Positions 20,637 through 63,801 of a stretch of DNA of 64,000 nucleotides are shown one piece after another. The notes under the pieces were generated by a model. That model was not told where the DNA came from and made no database searches. It worked only from the letters and a program-made list of their open reading frames with translations. Each line of letters starts with the position of its first letter. Within the stretch, counting starts at the first letter, position 1. The stretch is from Sedimentisphaerales bacterium (GTDB lineage: Bacteria > Planctomycetota > Phycisphaerae > Sedimentisphaerales > SM23-30). Where the stretch lies: contig JAFGKT010000060.1 of NCBI GenBank assembly GCA_016928435.1, positions 20,870-84,869 of the forward strand. Direction: 5' to 3'. The translations under genes and the position numbers were made by a program.

Positions 20637-20643
20637 CCCGTCT

Positions 20644-20698: not shown

Positions 20699-20701
20699 CT
20701 G

Positions 20702-20750: not shown

Positions 20751-20865
20751 TTTCATCCAGATTGCACTCTCGCCCAATCCCCCGTGCCTAATCACCGCCG
20801 CCAAGCCCATTATCAGATATCCCTTAATTCCTCCCACAATCCTGCCGATGAACTAATAGCGGTTC

Positions 20866-20894
20866 TTGACAAAATGTCCTATAATTGTTAGGAT
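20866..20894 (+). promoter_or_regulatory. sigma70-like promoter upstream of rnc
   Basis: TTGACA (20866-20871), 17-nt spacer, TAGGAT (20889-20894). Confidence 0.4.
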
Positions 20895-20967
20895 ATTGAG
20901 TATCTTCTCGGGCCTCGTTGCCGTCGGTATCGCAATGGGCTCGGCAGAAGTAGTTCGGTTGGTTCTC

Positions 20968-21022
20968 GGCGAAAATGACTTATCCGCGACCAAACCTCGC
21001 TGGCGAGCAAGCCATTTTCGCC
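20968..21022 (+). promoter_or_regulatory. long hairpin in the rnc 5' leader
   Basis: Perfect 10-bp closing stem GGCGAAAATG (20968-20977) / CATTTTCGCC (21013-21022) with further imperfect inner pairing; 20-30 nt before the rnc start. Confidence 0.5.
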
Positions 21023-21051
21023 CTTGACCTGCCCCTGCAAGAGTGAAAATC

Positions 21052-21777
21052 ATGACCATCGATCATTCTTCGCTGGAAGATTGCCAGCAGGTATTAGGCT
21101 ATCATTTCAATAACGTCGATTTGCTTCGACAATCATTGATCCACGCGTCCGTGGCTAGCCAAAGAGCAGCCAGTAATGAGCGTTTGGAGTTCCTCGGCGA
21201 TGCTATCTTGGGTATGGTTATCTGCCACGAACTCTATACCCGCTTCCCTTCTTATCTCGAGGGCGAACTTACCAAGATCAAAAGCATGTTGGTTTCTCGC
21301 CGAACCTGCGCCAAAATCGCCGATGATCTAGGGCTCGGCGATTTCCTGGAAGTCGGTAAAGGCATGGCCGCGCAAAAGAGAATTCCAACTTCCTGTCGTG
21401 CTGCCGCTTTTGAATCCGTAATCGGCGCCATCTATCTTGACGGCGGCGAAAAAGCTGCCTGGGACTTCATCCTCCGCTGCACCATCGATCTCTTGGAACA
21501 AGCCGACGCCAACCAGCATCAGGAAAACTTCAAGAGCATGCTCCAACAATATTCCCAGAGAACCATGGACACCACCCCTGTTTACGAAATCCTCGATGAG
21601 AAAGGCCCCGACCACAGCAAATGCTTCGAGGTCAGAGTTGTTATCGATCATCGACGTTTCGCCAGCGCCTGGGGACCCAGCAAAAAAGAAGCCGAACAGC
21701 TAGCCGCCTATCTCGCACTCCAAGAACTCAACGTCATCCCCGCCGACGATGCCCAAGCCTCCGACACCTCAGTCTAG
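21052..21777 (+). CDS. rnc: ribonuclease III
   Basis: Signature 'ERLEFLGDAILG' and C-terminal dsRBD ('GPDHSKCFEV...GPSKKEAEQLAA'). ATG at 21052; a GTG at 21043 is also possible. Confidence 0.92.
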   Translation: MTIDHSSLEDCQQVLGYHFNNVDLLRQSLIHASVASQRAASNERLEFLGDAILGMVICHELYTRFPSYLEGELTKIKSMLVSRRTCAKIADDLGLGDFLEVGKGMAAQKRIPTSCRAAAFESVIGAIYLDGGEKAAWDFILRCTIDLLEQADANQHQENFKSMLQQYSQRTMDTTPVYEILDEKGPDHSKCFEVRVVIDHRRFASAWGPSKKEAEQLAAYLALQELNVIPADDAQASDTSV

Positions 21778-21817
21778 CCCAGTCGCCTCACAAGCAAAAC
21801 TCCACCTGCATCTCGTC

Positions 21818-21950
21818 TCCTTTCCCCTCAATCAGAGCCCCACGCGGAATATCTACCAGTGCGGTTCGCGCCGCGGGGATTCCTCCCTGACCAACCGTGT
21901 ACCGCCGGCATCTTACCGACTTATCTGACCTCAACAACTCCATTGTACTC
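21818..21950. repeat. repeat family 2, copy C
   Basis: Aligns with 20521-20636 and carries a ~19-nt internal insertion. Confidence 0.8.
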
Positions 21951-22177
21951 TGTGGCTTTGCCTGCACTTTTGGCTGCTTAGCTGGGAGAACCCTAAAAAA
22001 AGTATTGACTGAATCGATATAGTTCGTCATAATCGGCGTTAATGCGAGAAAATCACAGCCTCTTAATAATAGATATAGAAAGCTGCCAAGCGACTGAGGT
22101 ATCGCCCGAATTACTGGGCTCGGGCTTTGCTTTAACGATACAATTCAACTAATCTGTAAACTGCGGAGAACTATTCG

Positions 22178-32335: not shown

Positions 32336-32964
32336 ATTCTCCTATTGTATCAAAAATCATTCTGTCCCGACCATCGGGCTGATAATCCATAACTCCAATA
32401 TCGGCTCTATTATAATGGCACGCATTTCGCGACCACTAAACTCACATTACATCGTCTGAATGCAAAATTCCGGCAGGGGGCGATGAATCCCCTGCCGAAC
32501 TCAAATTGCTGCGGTTGCCTACTTACTTCTTGCGATGAATAATACCCAAGCGAGGGCCGGCAGGCTCATGGTCATAGGTTCCGACACCAAAGTGAAGATC
32601 TAAATGTTGTTGGACGAGCTTGATTCATAAATTCATATACCTATTCACTTCAACTTGTGCCTTAAGATTGACACTGTTGTCTCAGCAGCCATCCCCACAA
32701 ACCACTTTAGAGCTTGAAATGTGGACACAGACCCGATAAAATGGAGAATTCTTCGACAATTACCAACACTGTCAAAAACATTTAGACATGAACAACCACG
32801 GTTTAAGGCCTATAACTTGCCTTATTCCGTAACCTGGTGCGCCGGCTCTACTGACCAAAGTGATACGCCGGCCACCTCTTTTTTTGCTCCTGCCTTCTTC
32901 AACCACCTTCTTGTACGCCAAAAACCATCCGACTCGGCCAAAACTACTTCACACTTGGCCCAAC

Positions 32965-34065
32965 TTAACTTTGTTTCTTCAACACCTCTTCGGCTACTTC
33001 CCGAATTCCTTCATCTTCTTCCACATAAGCATCCCCCAATGTCGAACGCCGTTCGATCAACGGACCCTTTATCCGAATATGTTCAGGATCGATCTTCGTT
33101 CCATCTTTCGTGTCCAAATAACGCATAACCAGTTTCGCGGCTTGCCGTCCCACTTCTTCTCGGCATTCATCAACTGTAGTCAGCGAAAAGAATGGATTGT
33201 CTGTAAATCCCATATTGCCAATGCTCGCTACCGCTAATTCCTTCGGCACCCGAACCTTCAACTTGCCCAATTCCGTCAATGTCTGCAAACCCAAAGCATC
33301 CGAAATTGTCACTAAAGCTGTCGGCCGATTCTTCCGCGTCATAAATTCCCGCACACTTTGTGCCACCGACGAAACATCCGCTAGCATCGTCCGAACTATG
33401 CTGCCGTCATGATAAGGCAAATCCAACTGTTGCAGTGAACGCTTGAAGGCCTCCTCTCGACCTAAAAGCGTCTCCGCCTCATATTGAACCGTCATGAAAG
33501 CAATATTGCGATGCCCCAGCTTGTGCAAGTGGTAAACACACTTTTCCACCGAATCCACCGGATCCAACGCCACCGACGAAGCCCCTTCAACCTTCATCAG
33601 ATAATCACACATGAATACCACCGGGCAACCTTCCGCCAACACCTCCTTGTAAGCCTCCGCACTCAAAGCGTACGGCAAGGCAATCAAAGCCTCAACCCGC
33701 TTCTCCAACATCATTTCCAATTCACGCCGCTCTTTGTCTCGGTCCCAATAATACACTGCCAACAGTGAATCGTAGCCGTGTATATCCAGAACCTGCTGGA
33801 TCCCTTTCGTAACTTCATGTGCCGAAGAACCCGTCAAGTCCGGATACATCACACCCACCAGATGCGTTTTGCGATTGACCAGTGATTTGGCCCAATAGTT
33901 CGAGCGATACCCCAACTGCTGCGCTGTCTTCAGCACTCGCGCAGCAGTCTCCGGAGCAATCTTGACTTCCCGGTGTTTACGATTCAATACAAACGAAACC
34001 GTAGTCTTCGAGAGCCCAACTTCCTTGGCGATATCAGCTATTCCAACCTTCTTGGCCAAAATCAA
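32965..34065 (-). CDS. LacI-family transcriptional regulator (LacI-1)
   Basis: HTH 'IADIAKEVGLSKTTVSFVLN' plus a periplasmic-binding-fold core. The likely true start is the TTG at 34059 (GAGGAA 6 nt upstream). Confidence 0.9.
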   Translation of the reverse strand: MILAKKVGIADIAKEVGLSKTTVSFVLNRKHREVKIAPETAARVLKTAQQLGYRSNYWAKSLVNRKTHLVGVMYPDLTGSSAHEVTKGIQQVLDIHGYDSLLAVYYWDRDKERRELEMMLEKRVEALIALPYALSAEAYKEVLAEGCPVVFMCDYLMKVEGASSVALDPVDSVEKCVYHLHKLGHRNIAFMTVQYEAETLLGREEAFKRSLQQLDLPYHDGSIVRTMLADVSSVAQSVREFMTRKNRPTALVTISDALGLQTLTELGKLKVRVPKELAVASIGNMGFTDNPFFSLTTVDECREEVGRQAAKLVMRYLDTKDGTKIDPEHIRIKGPLIERRSTLGDAYVEEDEGIREVAEEVLKKQS

Positions 34066-34107
34066 TTCCTCTTATTCAGACTAAAACTATTTATTCCCAA
34101 TAGTTAT

Positions 34108-34136
34108 ATAATATCAGACTAAAACGTTATAGTCAA
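34108..34136 (-). promoter_or_regulatory. LacI-1 promoter with overlapping palindromic operator S1
   Basis: Minus strand: TTGACT (34136-34131), 17 nt, TATTAT (34113-34108). The 16-bp operator ACTATAACGTTTTAGT (34118-34133) covers the -35 box and spacer. Confidence 0.55.
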
Positions 34137-34173
34137 GCAAATTCCGCCCAACTAATCACTTAAATAACAATTC

Positions 34174-35700
34174 TTACTCAGTTCGTTCCGTCGGATGCGA
34201 ATCAAATACGTCCACATAATCTTGAGCTGTCACTCCGTATTCCGCCAAAGCCTCCGCATCCAATGTTTCCCGCGGATCACCACCGGAAGGCAGCCCCTCC
34301 GTATAGATCCAATAGCCGTCCGCCGTCTCCCGCGCCCAATCTAGCTGCTCATCAAGATAACGCGGCAGATAATTCGCCAAGCGTGTTCGGCAATTCCAAG
34401 GATGAAAGCCCGGTAACACCCGATACAAAAACGGATACGCTTCATAGGTCAGGTTCACATAGAAGTCCGGCATATGAAGGTAGTATTGATTCAAATGGAT
34501 CAGCCCTTCTACACTCGAGGGCATTTCACTGTTGCCCGCACCATATGTCTTCTCCAGTGCCATCGAAACCCGAATCCCGGCGTCACTAATACCTTTGAGA
34601 AACCAATAATTGCCCTGCTGATAATCTTCAGGCGTCTCCTGCGTCACATATTCCGCACCACCGACCAACTGATAGTTGCCAAATAACCGACCTTCCCACA
34701 TTTGGATCACTTCACAATCCCAAACCTCCTTCAACACTGTGCCATATTGCAGTCCGCGTTGGTAGTACAGTCCGTCTGGCCCCCAATGCTGGGTGTAGCG
34801 CCAAGCCATTTCATTGGCATAAGTCTCGCCATCCCAAACGAGGCCGGTGAACCCTAAATCCCGTGCGCGAGCATAAACCTGTCGCGCCTGCATAAAACAA
34901 CGCTGCCAGACCTGGTCGTTTTCCAGCATCTCAGGACTATCAACCAAGCAGGTGAAGAACTCATGTTCGCCAAGCCAATATCGTATCCCGTGCTGGGCAA
35001 ATTGCTCAAATGCGCCGGTCTCTACACAAGAATCCAAGCCGACACTGTAGTTCGTCTGCGGCCAAGCTGTCTCAACATAATCCAACCAGATATCCGTTAC
35101 GCCCAATTCATCGCTCAGATAGTCAATCTTGTCTAAATAGTCCCCTTGAATATTCAGCGTCCAGCCACACAAATGACGCTCCGGCAAATTTTCCCGACCT
35201 AATACCTCAATCTCCGCCAAACCCGTCCCCATCAACTTTACCGTCACATAACGCCCCACCGCCGGGGCCACAACTATCTCAGTCCGCGCACCCGGCGACG
35301 TCACCAAATTCACCTGCCGATACAGCAATTCCCGGTCCAGTTCTCCACCATTGCCTACATGCACTTCCAACGCCCAAAGACTGCGATTCGATCCGGTCCC
35401 ATTCGTTAGCACCAACCCCTCGACCCGGCAAGGCTTGCCCAAGTCCAATACCACTTCCGCGCCGTGATCGAAATCCGTCCATTCCCAATTCGTACCTGCA
35501 TCCCCGTCAACCACGTTCACCGCCGGGCTCGTAATCTCCCCCTGCATCGCCCGTGCCGACGACACCGTAACGCCTTCTAGAACGACCGCTTCCTGGCCAA
35601 GACACCCCGCGGAAAACCACCCAACCAGGATGACCGACAATAACAACAAAATCCGTCTTGCAATCACTAAATTACTCTCCATGGTGGCTCGTATTCGCAC
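34174..35700 (-). CDS. lipoprotein with discoidin-like domain and uncharacterised C-terminal domain (paralogue B)
   Basis: Lipobox 'FSAGC'. Roughly two-thirds identical by eye to ORF 22178..23677 over the whole length. Starts 14 nt after the DUF1559 gene stop (GTG at 35700 or ATG at 35682). Confidence 0.7.
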   Translation of the reverse strand: MRIRATMESNLVIARRILLLLSVILVGWFSAGCLGQEAVVLEGVTVSSARAMQGEITSPAVNVVDGDAGTNWEWTDFDHGAEVVLDLGKPCRVEGLVLTNGTGSNRSLWALEVHVGNGGELDRELLYRQVNLVTSPGARTEIVVAPAVGRYVTVKLMGTGLAEIEVLGRENLPERHLCGWTLNIQGDYLDKIDYLSDELGVTDIWLDYVETAWPQTNYSVGLDSCVETGAFEQFAQHGIRYWLGEHEFFTCLVDSPEMLENDQVWQRCFMQARQVYARARDLGFTGLVWDGETYANEMAWRYTQHWGPDGLYYQRGLQYGTVLKEVWDCEVIQMWEGRLFGNYQLVGGAEYVTQETPEDYQQGNYWFLKGISDAGIRVSMALEKTYGAGNSEMPSSVEGLIHLNQYYLHMPDFYVNLTYEAYPFLYRVLPGFHPWNCRTRLANYLPRYLDEQLDWARETADGYWIYTEGLPSGGDPRETLDAEALAEYGVTAQDYVDVFDSHPTERTE

Positions 35701-35714
35701 CCAACACCTATTCT

Positions 35715-36440
35715 TTAGTCAACCGCCGGATTCCAATTTCTCGCATACGGAGAATCGGTCGTCATAGGACGCTTGCCGTAGTCCTCCCGGGTACTATGTC
35801 CGTCCAGCCATAACACATTGAATGCCCCAGCACCATATGTCTGCTGCACTTCAGTAGTGAACCATCCCCCACCGCCTCGGGGGTCGGGCTTTCGGCTCGA
35901 ATGACGATACCAGTCAATATGGTCCGGAAAGAGGAAAACCATAGTATACGGATACACACACTGCGAATCAGCAATGGTAATCCGCTCCGACGGGGAACTA
36001 ATGGTTGTGATGCGATAAGCTTGGGGGTACCACTCGTTCGCCCCATAGAGATAATTATACGCGTAACCCGCCGAAATCGCGTCATCCGGCACCTCTTTAA
36101 TCGACGGACAAGTCAATATTTCGGCAACTTCCCCTTCTTGACCTCCCCCTGAATTCAGCTTGAAGCAATCATCAATAAACGATGGCCAACCCGGAGGCTG
36201 GTTGAGTCCCGGCATAATCCAGTCATCATTGTTCATTTGGTACATTTGACAGTAAACCCCCAGTTGCCGCAAATTGGTGTTGCAGACCACACCCCGCGCC
36301 TGCTCCCGAGCCTTGCCCAACGCCGGCAACAATATCGATACCAACAACGCAATGATCGAAACCACCACCAGCAACTCGATCAATGTGAAACCGCCCCTCA
36401 GTTGCCCGCTGAACCGTCCATTATTCCGCGAATGCAGCAT
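35715..36440 (-). CDS. prepilin-type N-terminal cleavage/methylation domain protein (DUF1559 / H-X9-DG type)
   Basis: '[33 protein letters not shown]' is the canonical type IV pilin-like N-terminus of this Planctomycetota-expanded family. Confidence 0.85.
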
Positions 36441-36521
36441 TTCAGCACCTACCTTCTAAATGTAAGAAAAACACCCGCCGGTAACTCTCCCGGATTTGAC
36501 AACTGAACAAAAGTCAAACCA

Positions 36522-36537
36522 ACTAGAACGTTTTAGT
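36522..36537 (-). promoter_or_regulatory. LacI-type operator S2
   Basis: ACTAGAACGTTTTAGT, a near-palindrome with central CG, inside the predicted leader of the DUF1559 operon. Confidence 0.5.
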
Positions 36538-36587
36538 TTTCCCGGCTAAAAAAAGCAGCCCAAGCTGCCCTTAAACTACCTATCGAC

Positions 36588-36617
36588 ATAATAATCAAAC
36601 TATAACGGTTTAGTCAA
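36588..36617 (-). promoter_or_regulatory. promoter of the DUF1559/paralogue-B operon with overlapping operator S3
   Basis: Minus strand: TTGACT (36617-36612), 18 nt, TATTAT (36593-36588). Operator ACTAAACCGTTATAGT (36599-36614). Same architecture as the LacI-1 promoter. Confidence 0.55.
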
Positions 36618-36934
36618 GTAAAAAACCGTCAATTTTCTCCCAGTTCCCTGCTCCTGCCAAAAACATCGTCAAATCACATAATAATCCGTGCTAAAGCTCC
36701 ACTTTACCACCCCCCAATCCCTAATTATCCGACCGTCTTTTGCCTAGTTGCGGGTTTAATCCCTATAACAACCTATATACCCAGCGTTATACCTCCATAT
36801 ATCCGTCAGCCAATAGTCTTGAGAGACTGGTGATGTCGATATTTGCTAGGGTTTTTGCCTATTTGTTATAGCTGTGTCTAGCCAAAAACAGCGGTTGGCT
36901 GCCCCGATGCGACCGGGACAGCTTCCGCGTCCTT

Positions 36935-39517
36935 CTATGCGTCCTTATCTTCCGGTTTCTGGTGCTTATGTAGGTTCTCAATATCTGCAGCGTCATCTTC
37001 GGATTCGAGAGCGTCTTCCAGCATCGCTTCTTCGCGATGGGCCTCATCTATAACCTTATTTTCGACCTGTTCAACAAGGGCAATATCATCTGCCGAAACA
37101 TTACCTATAACCCGGCCGTCATCAAGGACACTAACCTCTTTTTCTCTCAATCTTCGGAAGAGCTTCTTCAAGTCAATAGTGGTGCCAATAGAAAACCAAA
37201 TCGTGGAAACCAGGGCGACAGCACCTGCGATAACGATATTCTGAATAAAGAACCAGTTCGCCCAGCCTTCGTTACTCCATTGGCCAAAAAATACATTCCA
37301 CACCGCCACAACGACAAACTGAATCAAGAACCCCCATCCAAAGCTATAAATAAATACCGACCAGGTAAGAATTTTGTCGCCCCTGCTGTATTCTTCGTTG
37401 ATGCCTATAAGTCGCAAAAATGCAGCCTTAGGAGTAAGACGCCTCTTGATGCTATCATCCCGGTCACCTTCCCGCTTGTACTTGCCGCGGTGCAGCATAC
37501 GATCCATATTGAACGGTTCGCGACAAGTCAGCAATGAAACAACAATGTATAGACCAAGACCAAGGAACATAGTAATAGCATACATCTCCTGTGAGTTGAT
37601 CGGGAACTTATCAGGCCCAACACGCCACAGAATGTATGGCTCGAACGGAGCCGATGCCCCTTCAACAATCGCCGTCACCGTACCGAGAAGGCCAGCGTCC
37701 AATAGCCACGGATAGATCGTTTCCACCCACATTTGTTGGCCCAAAAATCCGCCTACCGCCATTGATGATCCCACAATTAAAGCCACCCAAGCCCCCGCCG
37801 TTGTCCCGCGACTCCAATACAAACCGCCGACAATGCAAGGACCGGAACCGCCAAGCCAAATCAGACCCGTTATCGCGAAAAACATCTGAATATAGTCAAC
37901 CTGGCCAAAGTAAAAACTGAACAAAAACGCGAACAACGCGACCCCGACGATAATTAACCGAAGAACTCGTAACTGTTGTTTGGGCGTAAAGGGCTTCCTC
38001 CGAAGCGGCAATATCAGATCCTGCACGATAATGCTGCCCCATGAATGCATATATGTCGTATCCGTAGAAATCAGCAAAAACACACACAACGCGCAAAATG
38101 CCCCTGTAATCCCTATAGGTAAAATATAGCGAAGAGCCATCGGCACACGCATCTGCCCGAAGATAGTGAAGAATGTTTGTGACCCGGAAGGATCCACCGC
38201 TTTGATAGAATCTCTCGCGGTTAAGATACGTGCCTCACGCGCCGCGCGAGCTTCTTCCCCGGCTGATGGTGCTACTATCGGCGACTCAACTGCAACTTCT
38301 TGCTCTCCTGCACCCAGACCGGCAAGCCTGATCCGCTCCTTTTCTGCTTCGCCCTGAAGTCTTAGTTCTTCACTTTGGTTCAGCCAATCCCGAACAGCCG
38401 GGGTTACTTCACCTGTATTAATATACTGTGTAACTTCCTGGCGAACTTGGGCGTTTTCTTCACCGGATACGATGTCATTTAAGGCTTTGGTAGCTAATTC
38501 AGTTCGACATGCCAGGGCGCCGCTGGGGCCGTCATTAAACTTCGCGTTGGTCAAAAAAGTCAAAGCTACAACGGCCAAAAGAACGTACATCATGCCTGAA
38601 AAACCCGAACGCCAGGTTCCCAAAACACCACCCATTTTCTGCTCGTGAGCGTTTAATGCCGCGGCGTTGTAACCCTGAGTGCCCGACCAGCCCATACGGT
38701 TTAAGATGCCGCCTAGCATGCCCACAAGCACAAAGAACAGATTGAAATCACGATGCGCCTCGATATCAAATGGATTCAGAAGACTCTGACCCGGCGGACG
38801 ATCAAGCAACGAGGGGGCGATTTCATTAAACCACGAAAACCGGTAAATCAAATAGCCGACAACCAGCAAATAAAGAGGATAACTGACCAGCCCCTGCACC
38901 GCGTCGGTGACCATAATAGTAATTTGCCCGCCTTTGGTGGCAACCAACACCGCCACAGACAAAAATATCGCCATAACCAACCCAAAAGTGGGAAAAACAA
39001 ATCCGAAAACTGATATGTTAATAGGCAAATCGCAGAAATAAACAATGAACCTTGAGCCAACCGCCGGGAAGATAGCATAGTTTACCACGCCCGAAATGGA
39101 TTGCAAAATAGCAGCAAAAATACGAAAACTGCGAGAGTAACGCATTTCAAAAAACTGACCCATTGTCATCGCTCGGGTTTCGCGAAAACGATAAATACAA
39201 TAGCCTGTCAAACCCAGTATTATGCCGATCGGCCCAGCTATACCTCCCCACCAACCATAAGCAAAACCGGACCGATAATATACTTCATACATGCCGACCA
39301 AGCTAATCAAGCCGAACGCCGCTTCACCGGAAGCAACCGTCAGCACATAACGTCCCGCCACACGTCCCCCTGTCAGAAAATCAGATACACCCTTGACGTA
39401 TTTTTGAGCCTTGAGACCATTAAATACAACAATCCCAACCGGAATCGCAACGATTAACCAATCTATCCAATGCAAAGTATCACCTCTTTCAATAATCGTT
39501 AGGACTGTAATACGCAA
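36935..39517 (-). CDS. sodium:solute symporter (SSS) family transporter with a large hydrophilic insertion
   Basis: 860 aa, many TM segments, SSS-like N-terminus 'GGRVAGRYVLTVASGEAAFGLISLVG'. A ~110-aa charged insert and a C-terminal acidic tail. TTG start. Confidence 0.8.
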   Translation of the reverse strand: MRITVLTIIERGDTLHWIDWLIVAIPVGIVVFNGLKAQKYVKGVSDFLTGGRVAGRYVLTVASGEAAFGLISLVGMYEVYYRSGFAYGWWGGIAGPIGIILGLTGYCIYRFRETRAMTMGQFFEMRYSRSFRIFAAILQSISGVVNYAIFPAVGSRFIVYFCDLPINISVFGFVFPTFGLVMAIFLSVAVLVATKGGQITIMVTDAVQGLVSYPLYLLVVGYLIYRFSWFNEIAPSLLDRPPGQSLLNPFDIEAHRDFNLFFVLVGMLGGILNRMGWSGTQGYNAAALNAHEQKMGGVLGTWRSGFSGMMYVLLAVVALTFLTNAKFNDGPSGALACRTELATKALNDIVSGEENAQVRQEVTQYINTGEVTPAVRDWLNQSEELRLQGEAEKERIRLAGLGAGEQEVAVESPIVAPSAGEEARAAREARILTARDSIKAVDPSGSQTFFTIFGQMRVPMALRYILPIGITGAFCALCVFLLISTDTTYMHSWGSIIVQDLILPLRRKPFTPKQQLRVLRLIIVGVALFAFLFSFYFGQVDYIQMFFAITGLIWLGGSGPCIVGGLYWSRGTTAGAWVALIVGSSMAVGGFLGQQMWVETIYPWLLDAGLLGTVTAIVEGASAPFEPYILWRVGPDKFPINSQEMYAITMFLGLGLYIVVSLLTCREPFNMDRMLHRGKYKREGDRDDSIKRRLTPKAAFLRLIGINEEYSRGDKILTWSVFIYSFGWGFLIQFVVVAVWNVFFGQWSNEGWANWFFIQNIVIAGAVALVSTIWFSIGTTIDLKKLFRRLREKEVSVLDDGRVIGNVSADDIALVEQVENKVIDEAHREEAMLEDALESEDDAADIENLHKHQKPEDKDA

Positions 39518-39714
39518 AACTGCTGTTAAGGCAACCCGCTACCGCTTTTTGTACCGATATGTATGAGGGGATCGCAGGAACCCGGATGAGCCCAGCTACT
39601 CGCAATTCGACTTTCGCGGCAGGATTCTTATATACTCAGGAATTGGCCTAATCGCAATAGGATTCTTATGTCATCCTGGGTTTTCAATATAAACAGGACC
39701 TATTTGGGTTATTT

Positions 39715-40995
39715 TTAGGCATTCTCGGTTTGCGGGATAAAATCGGGAAGATAGAAATCCTTTTCCCACCCATCCAGCCATGCCGAACGCAAATCACCAG
39801 GGAGTACATCTCTTATGTTTATGAACTTGTCCTCGGAATATGCTAACGTGGCAGCATGGGCAAGCGTTTCTGCTGCGAAGGCTTGCTGCACCGTGGTCAT
39901 AGGATGCGCAGTGGTTGTCATTAGTTGATAGAAATGCCGAGCGACATTGTGGCCGCCATTGTAGTGTATGCGATTACGGTAATCGAAATCGAAAACGGAT
40001 TTATCGCCCGGAGTTGCAAACCGCTGACAGAGGACTACTCGACCGTGGTTGTCATCGCCGTCGTGAGTAAAGCTGATTTTCAGAATGCCTTTGGAACCTA
40101 TAATCTCATACTCTCGACTGGGACAACTTGAAGGCGTGAAATAACACTCGCTGTAAGAGCCAAAAATGTCATTCTCAAAATCGATCAGACACGCTTCGTT
40201 ATCCGGCACATCAATTTCCTGGGCATAAACACATTTATTCTGTCCTTGGGCTTCCATTGGTTCCACGCCATAATTAAGGCTGATGTTATGGATGCTGCTG
40301 GGACAAGAAATGCTTTCCGGGCAAGCCCCGCATGTGAGATCATTGCTTTTTGTGCCTCCAAATACCTGTCTTTTAGCAATCGCGGCAACCCGAACTGGCT
40401 TAGCTTCCAAAAGATGTATCAGGATGTCAAAATCATGCGTGGCTTTTTCCACAAACATGCCGCCGCCGCCGGCCATGGTCCTGCGGAAATTCCTATACAT
40501 GGTATTGCCATAGTGGCAATTCTGGACGAAATTGAACGAACACACTCGGCCTATCTCGTTATCGCGAATGAGCTGCTTCGCTTTGATGACGATGGGCGCG
40601 TAACGCATACAATGATCGACCACGATCTTGCCTGGATATGTTTGCGAAAAACGAAGTACGTCGCATATGTTGTCGTAGTTGGCATCTAACGGCTTTTCGA
40701 GCAAAATGGGAATATCGAGACCTTCAAACCGGCGGATGATTTCCAGGTGCAGATTATTAGGTGCAGCGACTATAACCCCATCGAGTTCTTCTTCTTGAAG
40801 CATATCTGGCACCGAAGCATAACGACGGGGGGAAATCTTAAGTATTTTACACCCCAACGCGTAATTATCATCGGAAGGATCAACCACTGCCGTAATGTCC
40901 ACGATGTGATTGCCAATTTCTAGAAAATTACGGCAAAGCTCACGCGCTATGATGCCAAAACCAATTACGCCGACTTTCTGATTCTGTACCGCCAT
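39715..40995 (-). CDS. Gfo/Idh/MocA-family oxidoreductase
   Basis: Rossmann 'KVGVIGFGIIAREL' and 'LLEKPL' motif; 426 aa with a Cys-rich insert 'CGACPESISCPSS'. Confidence 0.85.
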   Translation of the reverse strand: MAVQNQKVGVIGFGIIARELCRNFLEIGNHIVDITAVVDPSDDNYALGCKILKISPRRYASVPDMLQEEELDGVIVAAPNNLHLEIIRRFEGLDIPILLEKPLDANYDNICDVLRFSQTYPGKIVVDHCMRYAPIVIKAKQLIRDNEIGRVCSFNFVQNCHYGNTMYRNFRRTMAGGGGMFVEKATHDFDILIHLLEAKPVRVAAIAKRQVFGGTKSNDLTCGACPESISCPSSIHNISLNYGVEPMEAQGQNKCVYAQEIDVPDNEACLIDFENDIFGSYSECYFTPSSCPSREYEIIGSKGILKISFTHDGDDNHGRVVLCQRFATPGDKSVFDFDYRNRIHYNGGHNVARHFYQLMTTTAHPMTTVQQAFAAETLAHAATLAYSEDKFINIRDVLPGDLRSAWLDGWEKDFYLPDFIPQTENA

Positions 40996-55167: not shown

Positions 55168-55884
55168 TCAACTCAAGACAGCTTCTAGTTCTTCTTCTTT
55201 GCTGGCGGAATTTCTGCGACTGCGCTTCTTGGTCGGGGCAGCCCTTTGGTCAGTGAGAGCAACTTTAAGAGCTTCCGAGGCCGTGGGTGCGAATAAATCG
55301 GCGCCGATCTCTTCCCATAACCCTTCAGCTCTATTAAACAGCCCGCCGCTCAGCATAAAACGCATGTGCGGACAAGCTGATATGTCCCGTGTGTGATCGA
55401 TAAGTTGACGAACCCCAGGTGCCCCCGATGGCTGGGTGCCGTATATAAAAGTAATCTCCGGCTGAATCCTGCCGATCATGCTAAGTATCTCGTCATTAGG
55501 TACACCGCCTCCCAGAAAATGCACCGTCCAACCGTCCGACTCAAAAAGATCCGCACACATTTGAGCCCCCAATTCCTCCGGCTCACCATCCCCACAAACC
55601 ACAATCATTTTCTTGTTACGCTTCGGCCCGCAAGGCAGCTTGCTTTGCAACTGATCCACCAAAGTGCGATTGATACGAACCGCCATCTGATATGTGATCT
55701 GATCAATCTGATGATTGCGGAATATCTGCTCCAACTCTACCATTACCGGCCAAAACAACTCCGTATATATAGTGGTCGCCGGTGTCCCCGTCTGCAAAGC
55801 TTCGCCTAAAACCTTGCGACATTCAACGCGGTCACTCTGTAGTAGTGTTGTAAGATAACGAGTTCTAATCTGAATCAAATCCAT
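55168..55884 (-). CDS. stand-alone cobalamin-binding-domain-like protein (helical bundle + Rossmann-like B12 domain), His ligand absent
   Basis: Architecture and 'MIVVCGDGEPEELGAQMCADLFESDGWTVHFLGGGVP' match the B12-binding domain fold. The DxHxxG motif reads ExExxG. Confidence 0.65.
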   Translation of the reverse strand: MDLIQIRTRYLTTLLQSDRVECRKVLGEALQTGTPATTIYTELFWPVMVELEQIFRNHQIDQITYQMAVRINRTLVDQLQSKLPCGPKRNKKMIVVCGDGEPEELGAQMCADLFESDGWTVHFLGGGVPNDEILSMIGRIQPEITFIYGTQPSGAPGVRQLIDHTRDISACPHMRFMLSGGLFNRAEGLWEEIGADLFAPTASEALKVALTDQRAAPTKKRSRRNSASKEEELEAVLS

Positions 55885-56596
55885 AGTGTTCTATCCTGCT
55901 TCTTTTCTTCAACCATTTCTTGGTTGCTTCTTGCACTTTGGCTGCCTTGTGTGTTTCAACTCAGCCGCCGCCGTTCCGAAGGGTTCCATTGTTCTTTCTC
56001 AATCCCAATTGATCAAAGTCGTGTGTCTCTAGTTGAAAACGATTTTCTTCACTGCCTGTCATCCGCTGCCTCTTGGCGTCTCTAGCGTTCTGCGTAGTTT
56101 GCGTCCTGACGCTGCCCGCTGAGTTGCCGGTGTTCTGGTTGTTACCTATTTTGCCAAATCCTCTTGCAGTTTTTTCACTTTTGCGAAGCTGGCTAACATG
56201 GGCAACACAAGAGCTATCGTCAGAGGGGCTTTTTTATCTTTACTTTTCTGCCTATTTTATCTAACTTAACAAACATGTTTTATTATAGGACGTTAATGGT
56301 GGCGGTAGTCCACGCTGGACATGAGGGGGGTAAGAGACGTAAATAATGTTAAAACAAGGTACTAAGCCTAGAAATCCGCATTGAAGAAGTTGCGACGGGA
56401 TCTTGGCGGGCTTGACAGGATTTAGCACAGCGTCCAATCCTTGGAGGCCTTCATAGCTTGAACACCGGCAAAGCAGGCTTGAAAGGACGCAGCAAAGCGT
56501 TTACAATCAGAAACTTATGGCTCTCAGCAGTTAGTATGCCGGTTGCCATGGTACAGCATATAATGGTACATAGTTATTCCGATTGGGGTTGAGTCG

Positions 56597-56626
56597 TTGA
56601 CAGGTTTACCACATTGGCGTTAGCAT
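56597..56626 (+). promoter_or_regulatory. sigma70-like promoter upstream of top6A
   Basis: TTGACA (56597-56602), 18 nt, TAGCAT (56621-56626). Confidence 0.35.
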
Positions 56627-56666
56627 CTGAAAATTGGTTGGTTTTTATATATATAGATTAGGATTT

Positions 56667-56710
56667 GCCGGTCGGCATAGGGTGGGGCGGTGTTGGGACC
56701 GGCTGTTTTT
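56667..56710 (+). promoter_or_regulatory. terminator-like hairpin in the top6A leader
   Basis: GCCGGTC-23 nt G-rich loop-GACCGGC followed by TGTTTTT, ending 15 nt before the ATG at 56726. Confidence 0.4.
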
Positions 56711-56725
56711 CGAGGTAGCTCAGGG

Positions 56726-57841
56726 ATGGCAAAGAAAAGGACGGCAAAAAGCAATAGCAACAAAGTTGATGTAGTGGGGGTGATTGAAGCCAGCGCCCAG
56801 AAAGTCTGCGATACGATAGTTAATAAACGCAGACCCAAGATGCGGATCCCGGTACGCAGCTTGTCGAACGTGGAATATAAGGCCAAGAGCGGACACTTTG
56901 AACTCAAGGGCAATGTCAAAGAACGCACGCTAACGGTCAATACTGTAAAGACTTTTGCTCAAACCCTGAAGATGATGTCTTTGAGCAAAGAGTTGGTGCA
57001 GGCCGATGATATGGCCACGAAAAGGGAGGCTTACTATATCAGTAAGAACTGGGGTGACGCGGCTTTTCATGATCAGCCGGAATCTGATACAGTCATGGAT
57101 GATGTGGAAGCGATGTTTGGGGTTAATCGTGAGCAGTTGCGTTTTGTGCCGGAGGAAAAAGGTGGTGATGTCGCCGGACGGCTGGTGGTGATTGATCGAG
57201 ACAGTAATGGTAAAAAACTGGAGATTGATTGTACCCGGTTTGGATCGGGTTCTTATTCAGCGCCAAGTGATGTGGAACATCTGCAGTTTCGCAGTAAAGC
57301 GAAGTTCATTCTGGCGATCGAGACCAGTGGTGCGTTTCAGCGGTTGAACAATAGCGGTTACTGGGATAGCTCCAATTGTATATTGGTAAGTATGGGTGGT
57401 GTACCGACCCGTGCTTGCAGACGTTTCATTCGACGGTTGAGCGATGAACTTAACATACCGGTTTACGCGTTTGTTGATGGTGATCCCTATGGGTACTTTA
57501 ATATTTACCGTACGCTGAAGGTAGGCTCGGGTAACGCGGCCCATCTCAACGAGTATTTTTGCGTGCCGCAAGCGAGGTTCCTGGGAGTAACCCCCCAAGA
57601 TGTAAAAGACTATGCATTGCCCACGCACGCTCTTAAAGATGTTGATATCAAAAGAGCCAAAGACGCGTTAAAGAACGATCCGTTTGTGAAACATCATAAA
57701 CCATGGCAGCTAGCTATCAATCAGATGTTAAAGTCAGGCGTACGTGTTGAGCAGCAGGCATTCGCCAAGCATGGTTTGGATTTTGTGGTTAAGACATATT
57801 TGCCGGAGAAGCTGAAGAAGGTTTCAACGTTCTTGCCTTAG
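56726..57841 (+). CDS. top6A: type IIB DNA topoisomerase VI subunit A (Spo11/Top6A family)
   Basis: 371 aa. 5Y-CAP 'TKREAYYISKNW', Toprim Glu in 'ILAIETSGAFQRL', DxD in 'FVDGDPYGYFNIY', C-terminal 'VEQQAFAKHGLDFVVKTYLPEKL'. Colinear with archaeal Top6A. Confidence 0.85.
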   Translation: MAKKRTAKSNSNKVDVVGVIEASAQKVCDTIVNKRRPKMRIPVRSLSNVEYKAKSGHFELKGNVKERTLTVNTVKTFAQTLKMMSLSKELVQADDMATKREAYYISKNWGDAAFHDQPESDTVMDDVEAMFGVNREQLRFVPEEKGGDVAGRLVVIDRDSNGKKLEIDCTRFGSGSYSAPSDVEHLQFRSKAKFILAIETSGAFQRLNNSGYWDSSNCILVSMGGVPTRACRRFIRRLSDELNIPVYAFVDGDPYGYFNIYRTLKVGSGNAAHLNEYFCVPQARFLGVTPQDVKDYALPTHALKDVDIKRAKDALKNDPFVKHHKPWQLAINQMLKSGVRVEQQAFAKHGLDFVVKTYLPEKLKKVSTFLP

Positions 57842-57904: not shown

Positions 57905-60900
57905 TTGAAGCAGAAATCATCAGACACTGGTCGAGATGCCCAAAGCGGCAATGATGGATTAACTCAGAACGCGGAAGGGCAACTGGTAGAACAGGATTTC
58001 TGGTGCGCCAAAAATCGATGGCTCTGGTTGGGTTGCGTGTTGTTGGTGATAGTAGCGGCATTGCAGAGCGCCAACCGCTCTGTCGGCGGCGGCGACACCT
58101 GGGTCGCGATGGCCAACGGTCGTTACACCATGGGCCCTTGGGCTCAGCAGCAAGAAAACCGTACTTGGCAAATGAAAGTCCTGGATGTCTTCGGCATTCA
58201 CATGACATATCAGGATTATATGGGGGCGATGACGCGGGGATACGACCCGGCAGACCCGGAAAAATTCGGTTGGGTTAATCAGAATTGGCTCACGCACGTG
58301 ATGTTCTATAACATGCGAGAAGCCTGGGGCGAGAATTCGATTGTTATATATAAGTTCATCCAAGCGATACTGACGGCATTGTTCGCGTATTGGGCGGGAC
58401 GAAAGTTGGGGGCTCATCCGGTTCTCGCGGCCGCAACAGCGGCGTTTGGTATGTTGCTAAGCAGGTCGTTCATTGACCTGCGCCCAAACCAAAGCACGAT
58501 TTTTTATGCCGCGGCCATGATGATGGTGCTGGCGCATTGGCTAAAAGGTCGGCCTCGGGCGATTCTATGGCTGATACCAATCATGATGATGTGGTCGAAT
58601 GTACACGGCGGATTCATTTATGCGATGATGGTGCTGGCGGTGGTCCTGGCGGGGCACGCGGTACAGAATTATTTGGGTAAGTATGCCCAGTGGTTTGTAT
58701 TACTGGGTGGGATTGTGGCGATAGCGTTATTAGTACGCGGCATTGCCGGGCTGCAGAGCGAAGTGACGCTGCGGCAAAGTACCTTGGCCGAATGTCGTCC
58801 TTGGCAGATAGCCGGGGGCGTCGCGATAGGCGCGATAGTACTGCTGGAAATTTTGGCGTTAATACGTATCGTCGGTTCTGGGTTTGCTGATTTTGTGATG
58901 GTGGGCAATAGAAAGTTCAAGTGGCTCATCGGCGGCGGCGCGATTGTGGTTCTAGTACCAGCCATATTTACCCCGTTCGGTATTGAAAACGTATTGCATC
59001 CGCTGGTTATCGCTTTGGGGGAAGAAGGGGACATTTGGCGCCGAGTCGTTGAATGGCGTCCTATTTGGGACAAACAAGGTTTTGGCGAGGCCGGACCTTA
59101 CAGTTATTTTCTGTGCTTCTTCGCGTTAGTATGGTTTGTTTGGTGGCTGCTGGTTTTGTCAAGGCCGACCAGCACGGATTCGGCTCGCAGAAGCCGTCGC
59201 AAATCCGATCCGCTAAATGACATCTGGCCTAAAATCGATATCGCGGCAATCGGGGTAATCGCGATTACGTTGATAATGTCGATTAAGTCGCGTCGGTTCA
59301 TCTTCTTGGGCGGGGTCATCCTGGCGCCGTTCTTGGCGCAGATGGCGCAAGAAATCGCGTCGATGTGGAAGATGCTGCGCAAGCACAGCGAATGGCGCGG
59401 TTGGGCGTTTGTCGCGCCGGCTTGTAGTTTGGTATTGGGTGGTTTGATAGGGTGGGCCGCGGCCCGAGAGTTGTTTATTCCGTGGCTGAGTGAAGGGGAT
59501 GTATCCAAGATTCTAGGTTATGCCATGGGTACGGTTTTGGCATTCCTGGTGATGTTTGGCGTGTGGTTCGCATGGGAAGCGAAACTGAACAAACGTGTTT
59601 TGGTGACGGGTGTATCGCTTTTGAGTTGGGTGGCGGTGGCGCTTTTAGGAGCGATTTTCGCCGGCTGTATGTGGGATGTTTATTATCGCCCAGCCACTGA
59701 TGGTCGAGACCTGACAGTGTTTAGACGCATGGTAGGCATTCCAGCCCAACCGGTGGATGCGATAAAGTTCTTCGATGACAATCATCTCGAAGGAATAGTG
59801 TTCAACGAATGGGTCAATGGCGGCTTCATCACGTTTTGGCAGACGCCCCAAGAGTCAAACGGCCAGGCTTTATGTAAAGTTTACATGGACGGCCGGGCCC
59901 AGGCGGCATACAGTCTGTATCATTTCCAGCGATGGACCGCGTTGAAATCAGTGAATTTACCGCCGAACGATCACAATGTTCAAGTGCGATTGAGAGAACT
60001 CGCTCGGGCCCGAGGTATCTCCAACGATGGCACCAGAGATTTTTACGATCGATTATTGTTAGCGTCGGCGGTCGAGGCCGAAACAGGCACCCCGGCATCG
60101 CAAACAGGCAACCCGGCCCTGCAAACAGAACTTATCAGTTTGATTGGCCAAGACCGTGATCTCGATGCCGCATTCCTGCGCGCGCGAGTTCGCAACTTAG
60201 GAATCCACTTAGGCCTCAACCCCACCCACGAAGATTTTTACGATGCCTTGATACGACGGTTTGTCGATGAGTTGCCCGAGTACAAGCGCATAACGTTTCC
60301 GCAACTGGTAAGTGTTGAATCCGAAGTCAGCATTAATGACTTTTCATTGGCGGATCAGCAAAAGATTTTCGACTTAAGTCGGTATTGTGGTTTTAATCCA
60401 CAACAAAGACCTGACCAATTGGCGGAACTGTGTTTACCTATAGGTCGCTATGGTATTCTGACACGAATGGCCGCCGGCGATGCTCGGCTCTATGATGCGC
60501 TTCTGCGTCGTGACAGCGTGAATGTAATGTTGTTAGATAACCATAATCCCACGTCAAATACAATAGCTTGGCTGCTGATACCTTTGCCTCAGTGGCATGT
60601 GCTGTATCTAGACTACAAGAATACTTTGCTGGTGCGTGATGACGGCATACACAATCAGCGATTGCTGGCGGACCCGCTGAATGAGGCGGTCTATCGCGAC
60701 GAGAATACTCGGCTCATTTCGCAAGGCTATGCGCTTTGCAGCGAAGACGATCTGCGTTTGCAGGCCCAGGGCTTTGAGATGTTGCTGCAGGCGGATTTTG
60801 ATCTCTATAACCCTTGGATTTATGACGCGATTAATAGGGTTGGTTGGCGTTTGGGGCGGTTGGAAAGGGCCCGGGATTGGCTGCAAACAACGGGGCTTTG

Positions 60901-61261
60901 GTCAATGGAATCAACAGCTTGGCCCGAACAAGTCGAGGCGCAATTGGAAGTGAACTATGGCTGGTCGCAAGATGCCCTGGCCTGGCTGCAAGCGACCGCG
61001 GATTGGCCCCAACAGGATAGAAACTGGCTGGGAAGGACCCGCGATTATTGCTTCGGTCGTTATCAACGGTTCAAAGACTATATTGACAGCGGCGAGCGAT
61101 TTGGCAGGATACAAGCGTTTAATAATATTATTACCTGCTGTGCTATGCTGTCGTCATTTGGTGTAGAACCTGACGGAACAAATTATGTCCAACAGAGAGC
61201 CCATTATGTTGATATGCTGAAAGAGTTTTTTAATCAGGATAGGAGTTTATTCTGGAACTGA
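57905..61261 (+). CDS. 1118-aa polytopic membrane protein (GT-C-like N-terminal half, soluble helical C-terminal half)
   Basis: About 12-14 hydrophobic segments in the first ~560 aa, then a ~550-aa hydrophilic Trp/Leu-rich domain. TTG start 63 nt after top6A. No family recognised. Confidence 0.55.
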   Translation: MKQKSSDTGRDAQSGNDGLTQNAEGQLVEQDFWCAKNRWLWLGCVLLVIVAALQSANRSVGGGDTWVAMANGRYTMGPWAQQQENRTWQMKVLDVFGIHMTYQDYMGAMTRGYDPADPEKFGWVNQNWLTHVMFYNMREAWGENSIVIYKFIQAILTALFAYWAGRKLGAHPVLAAATAAFGMLLSRSFIDLRPNQSTIFYAAAMMMVLAHWLKGRPRAILWLIPIMMMWSNVHGGFIYAMMVLAVVLAGHAVQNYLGKYAQWFVLLGGIVAIALLVRGIAGLQSEVTLRQSTLAECRPWQIAGGVAIGAIVLLEILALIRIVGSGFADFVMVGNRKFKWLIGGGAIVVLVPAIFTPFGIENVLHPLVIALGEEGDIWRRVVEWRPIWDKQGFGEAGPYSYFLCFFALVWFVWWLLVLSRPTSTDSARRSRRKSDPLNDIWPKIDIAAIGVIAITLIMSIKSRRFIFLGGVILAPFLAQMAQEIASMWKMLRKHSEWRGWAFVAPACSLVLGGLIGWAAARELFIPWLSEGDVSKILGYAMGTVLAFLVMFGVWFAWEAKLNKRVLVTGVSLLSWVAVALLGAIFAGCMWDVYYRPATDGRDLTVFRRMVGIPAQPVDAIKFFDDNHLEGIVFNEWVNGGFITFWQTPQESNGQALCKVYMDGRAQAAYSLYHFQRWTALKSVNLPPNDHNVQVRLRELARARGISNDGTRDFYDRLLLASAVEAETGTPASQTGNPALQTELISLIGQDRDLDAAFLRARVRNLGIHLGLNPTHEDFYDALIRRFVDELPEYKRITFPQLVSVESEVSINDFSLADQQKIFDLSRYCGFNPQQRPDQLAELCLPIGRYGILTRMAAGDARLYDALLRRDSVNVMLLDNHNPTSNTIAWLLIPLPQWHVLYLDYKNTLLVRDDGIHNQRLLADPLNEAVYRDENTRLISQGYALCSEDDLRLQAQGFEMLLQADFDLYNPWIYDAINRVGWRLGRLERARDWLQTTGLWSMESTAWPEQVEAQLEVNYGWSQDALAWLQATADWPQQDRNWLGRTRDYCFGRYQRFKDYIDSGERFGRIQAFNNIITCCAMLSSFGVEPDGTNYVQQRAHYVDMLKEFFNQDRSLFWN

Positions 61262-61450: not shown

Positions 61451-63496
61451 CTAGGCGTGTTCTTCCTTTTCAGCTTTGGCCTTATCTACAATCTGTTGTT
61501 GAACATTTGAAGGCACGGTTTCGTAATGACTCAGTTCCATGGAGTAACTGCCTTGGCCGCCGGTTACGCTCTTGAGTTGAGAATTGTAGGTTTGCAGCTC
61601 AGATAGAGGCACTTGGGCTTTGATGACGGTCATGTTACCGGGAAGCATGTCTTGGCCTTGGACCCGGCCGCGCCGTCCGGCCAAGTCGCCGGTGATATCA
61701 CCGACGTTCTCAGTAGGAACGGTTACTTCAAGATTGACAAATGGTTCCAACAAGACGGGTTTGCACTGTTCAAAGGCTTTGCGGAACGCTCCTTTCCCGG
61801 CGATCTGGAAAGCGATATCTTTACTATCGACCGGGTGGGTTTTGCCGTCAACCAATGATACTTTGACATCAACGACAGGATAGCCGGCGATGACACCTTC
61901 GCCCATCGCGGCTTGACAACCCTTATCAACACTGGGCCGGAATGGCTGGTCGATAGATCCGCCGAAGATTTTGTCGACAAATTCGTAGCCTTTGCCTGTT
62001 TCGTTAGGTTCCATATCGATAAAGACTCGGGCGAACTGTCCGGATCCACCACTCTGTTTTTTGTGGGTGTACTCAACGTATTTGGCTGAGGCACTGATGG
62101 TTTCGCGATAAGGAATCTTGGGCGGTTTGGTATCGACATCCAAGCCGCGTCGTGAGTGCAGCCGTGAGAGAATAACACGCAGGTGCAACTCACCAATACC
62201 GGAAACGACTTGTTCGTTGGTTTGGCTGTCGCGGGTGACGAGGAAGGTCGGGTCGGATTCGACTACTTCGGTCAGGGCTTGGGACATTTTGGTTTCGTCG
62301 CCGCGACTCTTGGGAGTGATCGCCAAGCTGTACATGGGAATCGGCATGGTTGGTGCCTTGATCTTTCCAGGTTCGCTGCCGACAAAAACAGTATCGAGGA
62401 TTTTTAGGTCTTCGATCTTGGCCAAGGTTATGATGTCGCCGGCTACTCCTTGTTCGATTTGCTCGGAGGTATCGCCTTGGAGTTTTAGGATATTACCGGC
62501 ACGCATACCTTTTTTGCCCCCGGTCGCTGCCAGACTGGAGTCGCTCTTGACGCTGCCGCGCACCACCCTGATGGTAGTGTGTTTAATGTGAGTCTTGGGG
62601 TCGGAGGTGACGCGGAAGACTGTTCCCAGGAACGGTGCGCTCGGATCTGGTTCAATATCTTGGGCGGTTTGCTCCTCACCTTCGCCGGTAAGCAGTTGAA
62701 CCTTCACGCCTTGCTTGGGATTGGGACAGGTCGTCGCGATAAGGTCGAGCAGTTCTTTGGCGCCGATTTTGTTGCGGGCGCTGGTAAAGAGAATTGGAAT
62801 AACCGATCGGCTGAGCATTGCTTGTTGAAAAGCATTCGCGATTTTGTCAGCGGAGATTTCTTCGCCGCCGAGGTAGGCTTCCATCAGTTCCTCGTCAGCT
62901 TCGACGATGGTTTCGAGAAGATTCGTGTGGGCCTCAGCAACGTCGGTGAAGCCGGAGCCGCTGTCATTTATGATGCAGTCAATAACCGAACCGCCGTCAG
63001 CCGCGGCAACATTGGCGCAACGACATTCCATACCGAAAGTCTCTTGGATCGTGTTTATCAGTGACTCGAGTTCATCGGTGCCGGAATCGATTTTGTTTAT
63101 GACGATCACACAAGCCATGCCGCGATCTTTGGCGGCGTTGAACATTTTGCGAGTGTTCATTTGTATGCCGTCGGCGGCGCTGATGACGATGACGGCGGTT
63201 TCAGCAGCGGTAAGACAGCAACTGGTCGCCCCGATAAAGTCAGGATAGCCGGGAGTGTCGATGATATTGATCTCTTTATCGGCATGCGTGACGTGAGCAA
63301 TACCGGAGTCTATGCTGTAACCGCAGTGGTGTTCTTCTTCGTCACAGTCTAGGCAACTGGTTTTGTCATCGACGCTGCCAAGTCGATTGGTCGCTCCGGT
63401 GGTGTTTAAAAGTAATTCCGCCAGCGATGTTTTTCCAGCACTGGCGTGTCCGAACAATACTACGTTGCGAATGTCATCCACAGTATACTTTGCCAT
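61451..63496 (-). CDS. elongation factor G-like translational GTPase (EF-G paralogue)
   Basis: G1 'GHASAGKTS', G3 'DTPGYPDF', G4 'NKID'. Five-domain EF-G length (681 aa). ATG at 63496 with GGGAGA 5 nt upstream. Confidence 0.85.
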   Translation of the reverse strand: MAKYTVDDIRNVVLFGHASAGKTSLAELLLNTTGATNRLGSVDDKTSCLDCDEEEHHCGYSIDSGIAHVTHADKEINIIDTPGYPDFIGATSCCLTAAETAVIVISAADGIQMNTRKMFNAAKDRGMACVIVINKIDSGTDELESLINTIQETFGMECRCANVAAADGGSVIDCIINDSGSGFTDVAEAHTNLLETIVEADEELMEAYLGGEEISADKIANAFQQAMLSRSVIPILFTSARNKIGAKELLDLIATTCPNPKQGVKVQLLTGEGEEQTAQDIEPDPSAPFLGTVFRVTSDPKTHIKHTTIRVVRGSVKSDSSLAATGGKKGMRAGNILKLQGDTSEQIEQGVAGDIITLAKIEDLKILDTVFVGSEPGKIKAPTMPIPMYSLAITPKSRGDETKMSQALTEVVESDPTFLVTRDSQTNEQVVSGIGELHLRVILSRLHSRRGLDVDTKPPKIPYRETISASAKYVEYTHKKQSGGSGQFARVFIDMEPNETGKGYEFVDKIFGGSIDQPFRPSVDKGCQAAMGEGVIAGYPVVDVKVSLVDGKTHPVDSKDIAFQIAGKGAFRKAFEQCKPVLLEPFVNLEVTVPTENVGDITGDLAGRRGRVQGQDMLPGNMTVIKAQVPLSELQTYNSQLKSVTGGQGSYSMELSHYETVPSNVQQQIVDKAKAEKEEHA

Positions 63497-63801
63497 CGCG
63501 TCTCCCAACTGAGATTATCCAGTTACATTTGCCGCGTTTAACCTTGTCATTGCCGCCTAAAACTCATAGGATTCACAAAAGGCTGCTGATAGTCATCAAA
63601 TAGATAACGACTATTATGAGTAAAGGTAGGCCAACCGATTCTCGCGGTTTTAGATTGTCTTTTGTGACACTACCAGCAAAATTGTGAATTTTTGATTATA
63701 ACCGACCTAGATGCCTTATCAAGAGTTTTTTACCACCTGTCGCTTGGCTGCGCGGGAATCTTCAATGGTATAGCTTGGGATCGATTCATAGGGGATTCGT
63801 C

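Follow-up and report, generated by a model that had tools for sequence, protein, structure and literature searches.

The 64,000-nucleotide stretch analyzed here (the window; contig JAFGKT010000060.1 of assembly GCA_016928435.1, from an uncultured Sedimentisphaerales bacterium) carries top6A, a gene for subunit A of DNA topoisomerase VI (topo VI), with no gene for subunit B at its side. We conclude with high confidence that this top6A codes for subunit A of a canonical type IIB topo VI (A2B2) whose B gene lies elsewhere on the chromosome. This makes it a known enzyme, already catalogued in the order, whose genes are split, and not a stand-alone Spo11-like nuclease. An earlier reading of the sequence only had put forward two explanations for the solitary gene: a split topo VI, or a stand-alone Spo11-like protein that would be new biology for a bacterium. 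The former is favored by the unlinked genes of all 80 relatives surveyed, by the published presence of both subunits in the order, by 37 metagenome contigs that link the same Top6A lineage to a Top6B, and by unlinked Top6B genes on Phycisphaerae-like contigs.

The gene is intact. It starts with ATG (an in-frame GTG at 56690 would give a 383-aa alternative), and the 371-aa call was reproduced independently, with identical gene order, on the 9.9-kb Logan contig SRR13394437, the sole public contig outside the source assembly with exactly this protein. Three Pfam domains were recognized, the Toprim model PF21180 being matched end to end (1–170 of 170). The catalytic landmarks claimed by the sequence-only reading are all present at the places it gave: REAYY at residues 100–104, AIETSG at 197–202, DGDPYG at 251–256, EQQAF at 342–346 and YLPEK at 358–362. 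Closest among solved structures is M. jannaschii Top6A (1d3y; phmmer E 1.5e-115), with 58% BLASTP identity across 302 aa, followed by the Top6A proteins of M. mazei (E 1e-63) and S. shibatae (E 1e-46). Alignment with the M. jannaschii protein suggests that the second Tyr of REAYY is the catalytic tyrosine.

The alignment to M. mazei Top6A spans residues 23–366, and because it begins at residue 23 the N-terminal arm is present. The Top6A segment equivalent to residues 21–70 touches Top6B in the solved topo VI heterotetramers (PDB 2Q2E/2ZBK). Residues 21–371 give a gap-free alignment with 34 Top6A proteins whose genes lie beside a top6B, and the arm has invariant positions. Arg100, Tyr103, Tyr104, Glu199, Asp251 and Asp253 are kept in 34/34 of these Top6B-linked homologues.

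Relatives were collected by scanning one genome per GTDB species, which found more than 500; context and conservation counts refer to the best 80. These are 72–84% identical to the window protein, the nearest GTDB species genome being at 84%. The catalytic Arg/Tyr/Tyr/Glu/Asp/Asp set is invariant in 80/80 orthologues and the core is about 84% conserved; this invariance indicates that top6A is under purifying selection. Most of the 80 are labeled Sedimentisphaerales, Anaerohalosphaeraceae, Phycisphaerae or plain Planctomycetota, and about a quarter are labeled otherwise, mostly "uncultured Pirellulales". Several of the oddly labeled loci (L003, L012, L018, L023, L063 and others, under "uncultured Pirellulales", "Gimesia maris" or "Candidatus Kuenenia") have Top6A 75–82% identical to the window's. 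Three of them (L003, L012, L018) show the same membrane-protein synteny as the closest Sedimentisphaerales relatives, and L063 has the usual Phycisphaerae neighbor genes, rearranged. Their labels are probably wrong, or the contigs misbinned.

No Top6B is encoded next to the window's top6A, as had been noticed. Pfam scans of the large open reading frames of the 64-kb window found none, and a Top6B hidden Markov model, run on its six frames with filters off, matched only histidine-kinase ATPase domains at E>0.01; a positive control worked. Separation of the A and B genes is systematic in Sedimentisphaerales: Top6B was absent from the fetched flanks (up to 10 kb) at 80/80 of the relatives' top6A loci. 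The usual context there, from neighbor clustering and Pfam, is argJ, H+-PPase, rsfS, argS, UPF0047, top6A, a yggS-like gene and a SpoIIE-type phosphatase. The expectation that the two topo VI genes are normally adjacent holds for most lineages looked at, several archaeal ones included, but not for the 80 Phycisphaerae genomes, nor for Methanococcales, where, in the complete Methanotorris igneus genome, the 10 kb on either side of top6B contain no top6A. Since the genes are unlinked across the order, a missing neighbor top6B is no sign of a missing enzyme, and in Sedimentisphaerales and Methanococcales alike it must not be read as one.

The published record agrees. Topo VI was known from three bacteria only in 2009 (Forterre & Gadelle, PMC2647321); Allen & Maxwell 2024 (PMC11302465) report it in 17 bacterial families, including Anaerohalosphaeraceae and Sedimentisphaeraceae. 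Both VI-A and VI-B are listed for Anaerohalosphaera lusitana and Sedimentisphaera cyanobacteriorum, the VI-A and VI-B trees contain the same 17 bacteria, and one bacterial VI-A cluster adjoins Methanococcales (PMC11302465). Thus in cultured relatives of the window organism a top6B exists elsewhere in the genome and VI-A is placed with ordinary bacterial VI-A proteins (PMC11302465), the combination that the sequence-only reading itself had named as reducing its finding to a split operon. The window genome too very probably has a top6B.

What kind of Top6B partners this Top6A lineage was learned from metagenomes. Contig L089 has a Top6A with 62% identity to that of the window, and a metagenome scan seeded from the Top6B group of L089 yielded 80 loci. 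At 37 of these, a Top6B with P0280 as its nearest representative directly precedes a Top6A 56–70% identical to the window's. Because the genes are adjacent on these 37 contigs, the lineage is predicted to work with a canonical Top6B. Four further loci (L134, L136, L154, L155), with a guanine-plus-cytosine (GC) content of 0.46–0.53 like that of the window, encode a P0280-type Top6B with no top6A within 8–10 kb. These four proteins are complete and mutually 69–90% identical; that of L154 has HATPase_c and the Topo-VIb transducer domain (E 1.2e-54). One gene context (serA, top6B, phosphohexomutase, cation-efflux gene, DUF2238) is common to the four, and their neighbors are bacterial, including ShlB/FhaC and PilX-like genes.

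Raw tetranucleotide correlation was confounded by GC and was replaced by GC-corrected TETRA z-scores, for which the practical ceiling of r is about 0.82 (a sub-piece of the window against the whole). By this measure, in a set of 135 loci, L134, L136, L154 and L155 have one another and Phycisphaerae top6A loci as their ten best matches (r 0.63–0.78). A fifth contig, L138 (GC 0.50, bacterial), behaves like these four. When flanking genes were compared with the Phycisphaerae loci by BLAST, most of the matches were antisense artefacts.

Other routes to a partner led elsewhere. A euryarchaeal Top6B profile matched 663 representatives at E<=1e-30, of which the best 150 of 663 were examined; cluster look-ups gave sparse labels. 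Five Top6B candidates picked by composition (P0260, P0269, P0249, P0384, P0441) proved archaeal. Four more (P0285, P0279, P0299, P0397) belong to a second bacterial topo VI lineage, which includes a Planctomycetota metagenome-assembled genome and a Polyangiaceae one; there top6B is followed by an adjacent top6A, and the Top6A is only 32–37% identical to the window's. A tblastn search of plasmids returned haloarchaeal megaplasmids only.

Two groups of contigs met along the way deserve mention. One (L115, which is the 158-kb JGI contig Ga0209515_10000094, with L148, L118 and L127) has linked top6B→top6A with Top6A 65–70% identical to the window's. By its genes (TYW2/Trm5, a DnaG-type Toprim protein) L115 looks archaeal, and GC is very low (0.29–0.33) in L148, L118 and L127; the Top6A lineage therefore extends beyond Methanococcales and bacteria. 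The other (L089–L092, ENA/JGI metagenome contigs of up to 37 kb) carries a complete topo VI in what is apparently a replication module of a large phage or virus, or of a mobile element. In L089 a short 504-aa Top6B (P0349) at 5813–7327 and a Top6A at 12235–13293 lie 5 kb apart. Around the topo VI genes of this group are more than 12 small same-strand open reading frames without family, an RNase H-like gene, a metallophosphatase, a radical SAM gene and a phage-type class II ribonucleotide reductase (PHROG, 563 bits). A scan of IMG/VR for relatives of P0349 found none.

Several observations weigh against our interpretation. The source organism's own top6B was not seen in the 64 kb and the 9.9-kb Logan contig. 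Three archaeal Top6B baits (S. shibatae, 1079 bits against 2zbk_B; a Pyrococcus-like protein, 86% identical; Methanothermococcus P0244) returned only archaeal proteins among the 120 matches listed per search, and no Top6B carrying a Sedimentisphaerales label was retrieved by them. Assignment of L134, L136, L154 and L155 to Phycisphaerae was made from genome signature alone and is supportive, not conclusive; some mid-GC control contigs also scored high (10/10 for L150, 8/10 for L175 and L109), and a co-divergence (mirror-tree) test of A and B was without discrimination. The window protein reached the curated cut-offs of 0/6 NCBIfam Top6A equivalog models (NF003332–NF003337), the best, NF003337, scoring 488 bits against a cut-off of 675. 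The family match is still strong, and these scores fit a lineage outside the six equivalog models. Finally, no biochemical work on planctomycete topo VI was found in the searched literature.

If the enzyme acts as a canonical topo VI, the A dimer would bind the gate DNA segment and cut both strands through its tandem-Tyr 5Y-CAP site and Mg2+-binding Toprim site, and the GHKL-ATPase B subunit would capture a second duplex and drive ATP-dependent strand passage. The gene for B would lie at another place on the chromosome, and each of the two genes would have a conserved housekeeping neighborhood of its own. Its cellular role is most likely that of a decatenase and a relaxase of positive supercoils. 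The decatenase role is likely because surveys of the planctomycete families find gyrase but no ParC/ParE (topo IV), and topo VI has been proposed as the decatenase there (PMC11302465); if it is, top6A would be an essential gene. The finding carries little weight as a discovery and is of use for annotation and for work on type IIB topoisomerases.

A first rival would have the protein cleave DNA as a stand-alone Spo11-like enzyme, either with no Top6B at all or together with a novel partner, for instance the product of the next gene; were there truly no Top6B, with Top6A alone or with an unrecognized partner, this would be a bacterial Spo11-like DNA breaker. The next gene (57905..61261, +; TTG start) lies 63 nt past top6A on the same strand, with no convincing terminator between. 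It was correctly described as encoding a 1118-aa polytopic membrane protein: about 11 hydrophobic segments lie in the first 600 residues, ahead of a large soluble C-terminal part. The protein has no family match in Pfam, NCBIfam or PADLOC, and an AlphaFold single-sequence model of its first 639 residues was unusable (mean predicted local distance difference test score 46). These features, the lack of Top6B in the window and within 10 kb in the 80 relatives, and coverage of the source genome by only 64 kb and a 9.9-kb contig, are what the rival draws on. Synteny of top6A with the membrane-protein gene had been proposed as a check, yet the gene follows top6A in just 11 of the 80 relatives, the 11 closest, at 35–54% identity. 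In 8 of those 11 a family-2 (GT2) glycosyltransferase comes next, a pairing that suggests envelope glycosylation, not DNA metabolism; for the same reason the 1118-aa protein may be an unrecognized GT-C-type envelope glycosyltransferase. In most relatives it is UPF0047 and yggS-like genes that flank top6A. Retention of the Top6B-contacting N-terminal arm, occurrence of the same lineage beside canonical Top6B on the 37 contigs, and publication of both subunits for cultured members of the order (PMC11302465) also go against this rival. We consider it very improbable; what slight chance it keeps is due solely to the unread remainder of the genome.

No more credible is the idea that top6A is what remains, decaying or without function, of a topo VI that was acquired laterally and lost its B subunit. 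Bacterial topo VI is indeed of lateral origin (PMC2647321, PMC11302465), no partner is linked, and an unusual gene-free stretch of 841 nt (55885..56725) lies upstream, where the gap in relatives is about 20–420 nt. The earlier claim that the upstream 840 bp is without an open reading frame stands as regards genes but not strictly, for there is one frame of 63 aa and otherwise none of at least 60 aa. The stretch has no Rfam match, no remnant or pseudogene of a neighbor gene and no block conserved with relatives; it is probably a lineage-specific rearrangement scar or breakpoint, at which the upstream synteny of relatives is lost. Against decay, the frame is intact and full length, the catalytic residues are 100% conserved in the 80 orthologues, from many genera, and the 34 Top6B-linked homologues, the core is conserved as given above, and the chromosomal position is conserved. 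A third proposal, that the protein is the nuclease of a Wadjet/MksBEFG-type anti-plasmid or anti-phage system (JetD/MksG-like, Top6A-related), draws on weak PADLOC JetD matches (best 33 bits, E 7.9e-09), but is effectively refuted, since this remote similarity is confined to the Toprim region (residues 166–347), where the Top6A Toprim model scores 206 bits, in every relative the gene sits in a housekeeping context, a genuine archaeal Top6A shares 58% identity with the protein, and the adjacent SMC-type jetABC-like (JetABC/MksBEF) genes or JetD-like loss of the catalytic tyrosine that it would need are not seen.

A milder novelty, and a likelier one than a stand-alone Spo11-like breaker, concerns the origins of the two subunits of the split topo VI. 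In Top6A, this lineage shares 58% identity with Methanococcales and only 32–38% with the other bacterial lineage. For the P0280-like Top6B, a member of a broad group to which the other bacterial lineage also belongs, the order is reversed, with 50–58% identity to that lineage's Top6B versus about 41% to that of Methanococcales, for which it shows no special affinity. The comparison (L102–L181 against L081–L085, and P0244) is one of identities, with no tree. The Sedimentisphaerales enzyme would thus appear to be an evolutionary mosaic, its A and B subunits having different nearest relatives. This discordance suggests replacement of a subunit or separate transfers, either of which is plausible where genes are unlinked; it is an evolutionary question suited to a proper phylogeny.

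Table 1. Features of the top6A locus, with positions in the window and the evidence for each.
Feature	Position	Strand	Evidence
top6A coding sequence, topoisomerase VI subunit A, 371 aa	56726..57841	+	Open reading frame, three Pfam domains, homology, Logan gene call
N-terminal arm, residues 21-70	56786..56935	+	Alignment to M. mazei Top6A and 34 Top6B-linked Top6A
5Y-CAP / winged-helix domain, Pfam TP6A_N (PF04406), residues 75-138	56948..57139	+	E 3.6e-17
Tandem Tyr103-Tyr104 in REAYY	57032..57037	+	Position, alignment to 1d3y, invariance
All-beta linker domain, Pfam Topo_VI_alpha, residues 143-191	57152..57298	+	E 3.3e-16
Toprim domain, Pfam TOP6A-Spo11_Toprim (PF21180), residues 194-363	57305..57814	+	E 4.6e-61
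Metal-binding Glu199	57320-57322	+	Located in Toprim domain; 100% conserved
Metal-binding Asp251-x-Asp253	57476-57484	+	Located in Toprim domain; 100% conserved
Sigma-70-like promoter match TTGACA-18-TAGCAT, 100 nt upstream of start	56597..56626	+	Consensus match only
Second sigma-70-like promoter match	56479-56507	+	Consensus match only

The promoter matches in Table 1 are not significant, the region having 4 sites where shuffled sequence would be expected to give 2.8. Two other neighbors lie on the minus strand. The gene at 55168..55884 encodes a stand-alone B12-binding-domain protein, weakly similar to corrinoid methyltransferase proteins and CarH. That at 61451..63508 (TTG start) encodes an EF-G-family GTPase, and an EF-G paralogue is in place in L010 and L018 (64–68% identity). 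GC skew is very strongly negative, at -0.2 to -0.41 in 2-kb windows, over 4001..22000 and 30001..40000 of the window, where genes are on the minus strand, and positive at 42–48 kb and 56–62 kb, where they are on the plus strand. The sign thus tracks gene strand: the coding strand is markedly richer in G than in C, most of all over the gene for a 1282-aa DUF748 protein (3265..7113, -).

Among known systems, eukaryotic Spo11 is homologous in its 5Y-CAP and Toprim fold and relies on the same tyrosine chemistry for catalysis; together with a partner that is a degenerate Top6B-like protein it introduces breaks in meiosis, and it lacks the turnover of a topoisomerase. At the window's top6A nothing points to that mode of action. 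Topo VIII has B-like ATPase and A-like cleavage parts fused in one chain. The window's Top6A, in contrast, has 371 aa, no GHKL domain and a chromosomal gene. Topo VIII and Mini-A are both type IIB members found in bacteria, the former mainly plasmid-encoded and the latter consisting of 5Y-CAP and Toprim only, on mobile elements (Takahashi et al. 2020, PMC7671362). Unlike Mini-A, the window protein has the extra N-terminal arm and all-beta domain, and its gene sits in a chromosomal housekeeping context. M. jannaschii Top6A (1D3Y), though archaeal, has the same domains and catalytic residues, its 58% identity holding over the crystallised fragment, and in Methanococcales top6A and top6B are unlinked, as at the Sedimentisphaerales top6A loci. 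This identity matches the Top6A cluster placed beside Methanococcales in the published tree (PMC11302465). The present top6A differs from the published cases in coming from an uncultured species and in being seen here to be unlinked, gene linkage not being discussed in that paper. The closest counterpart is the Sedimentisphaerales topo VI reported there (PMC11302465): the same order, the same enzyme, and gyrase without topo IV.

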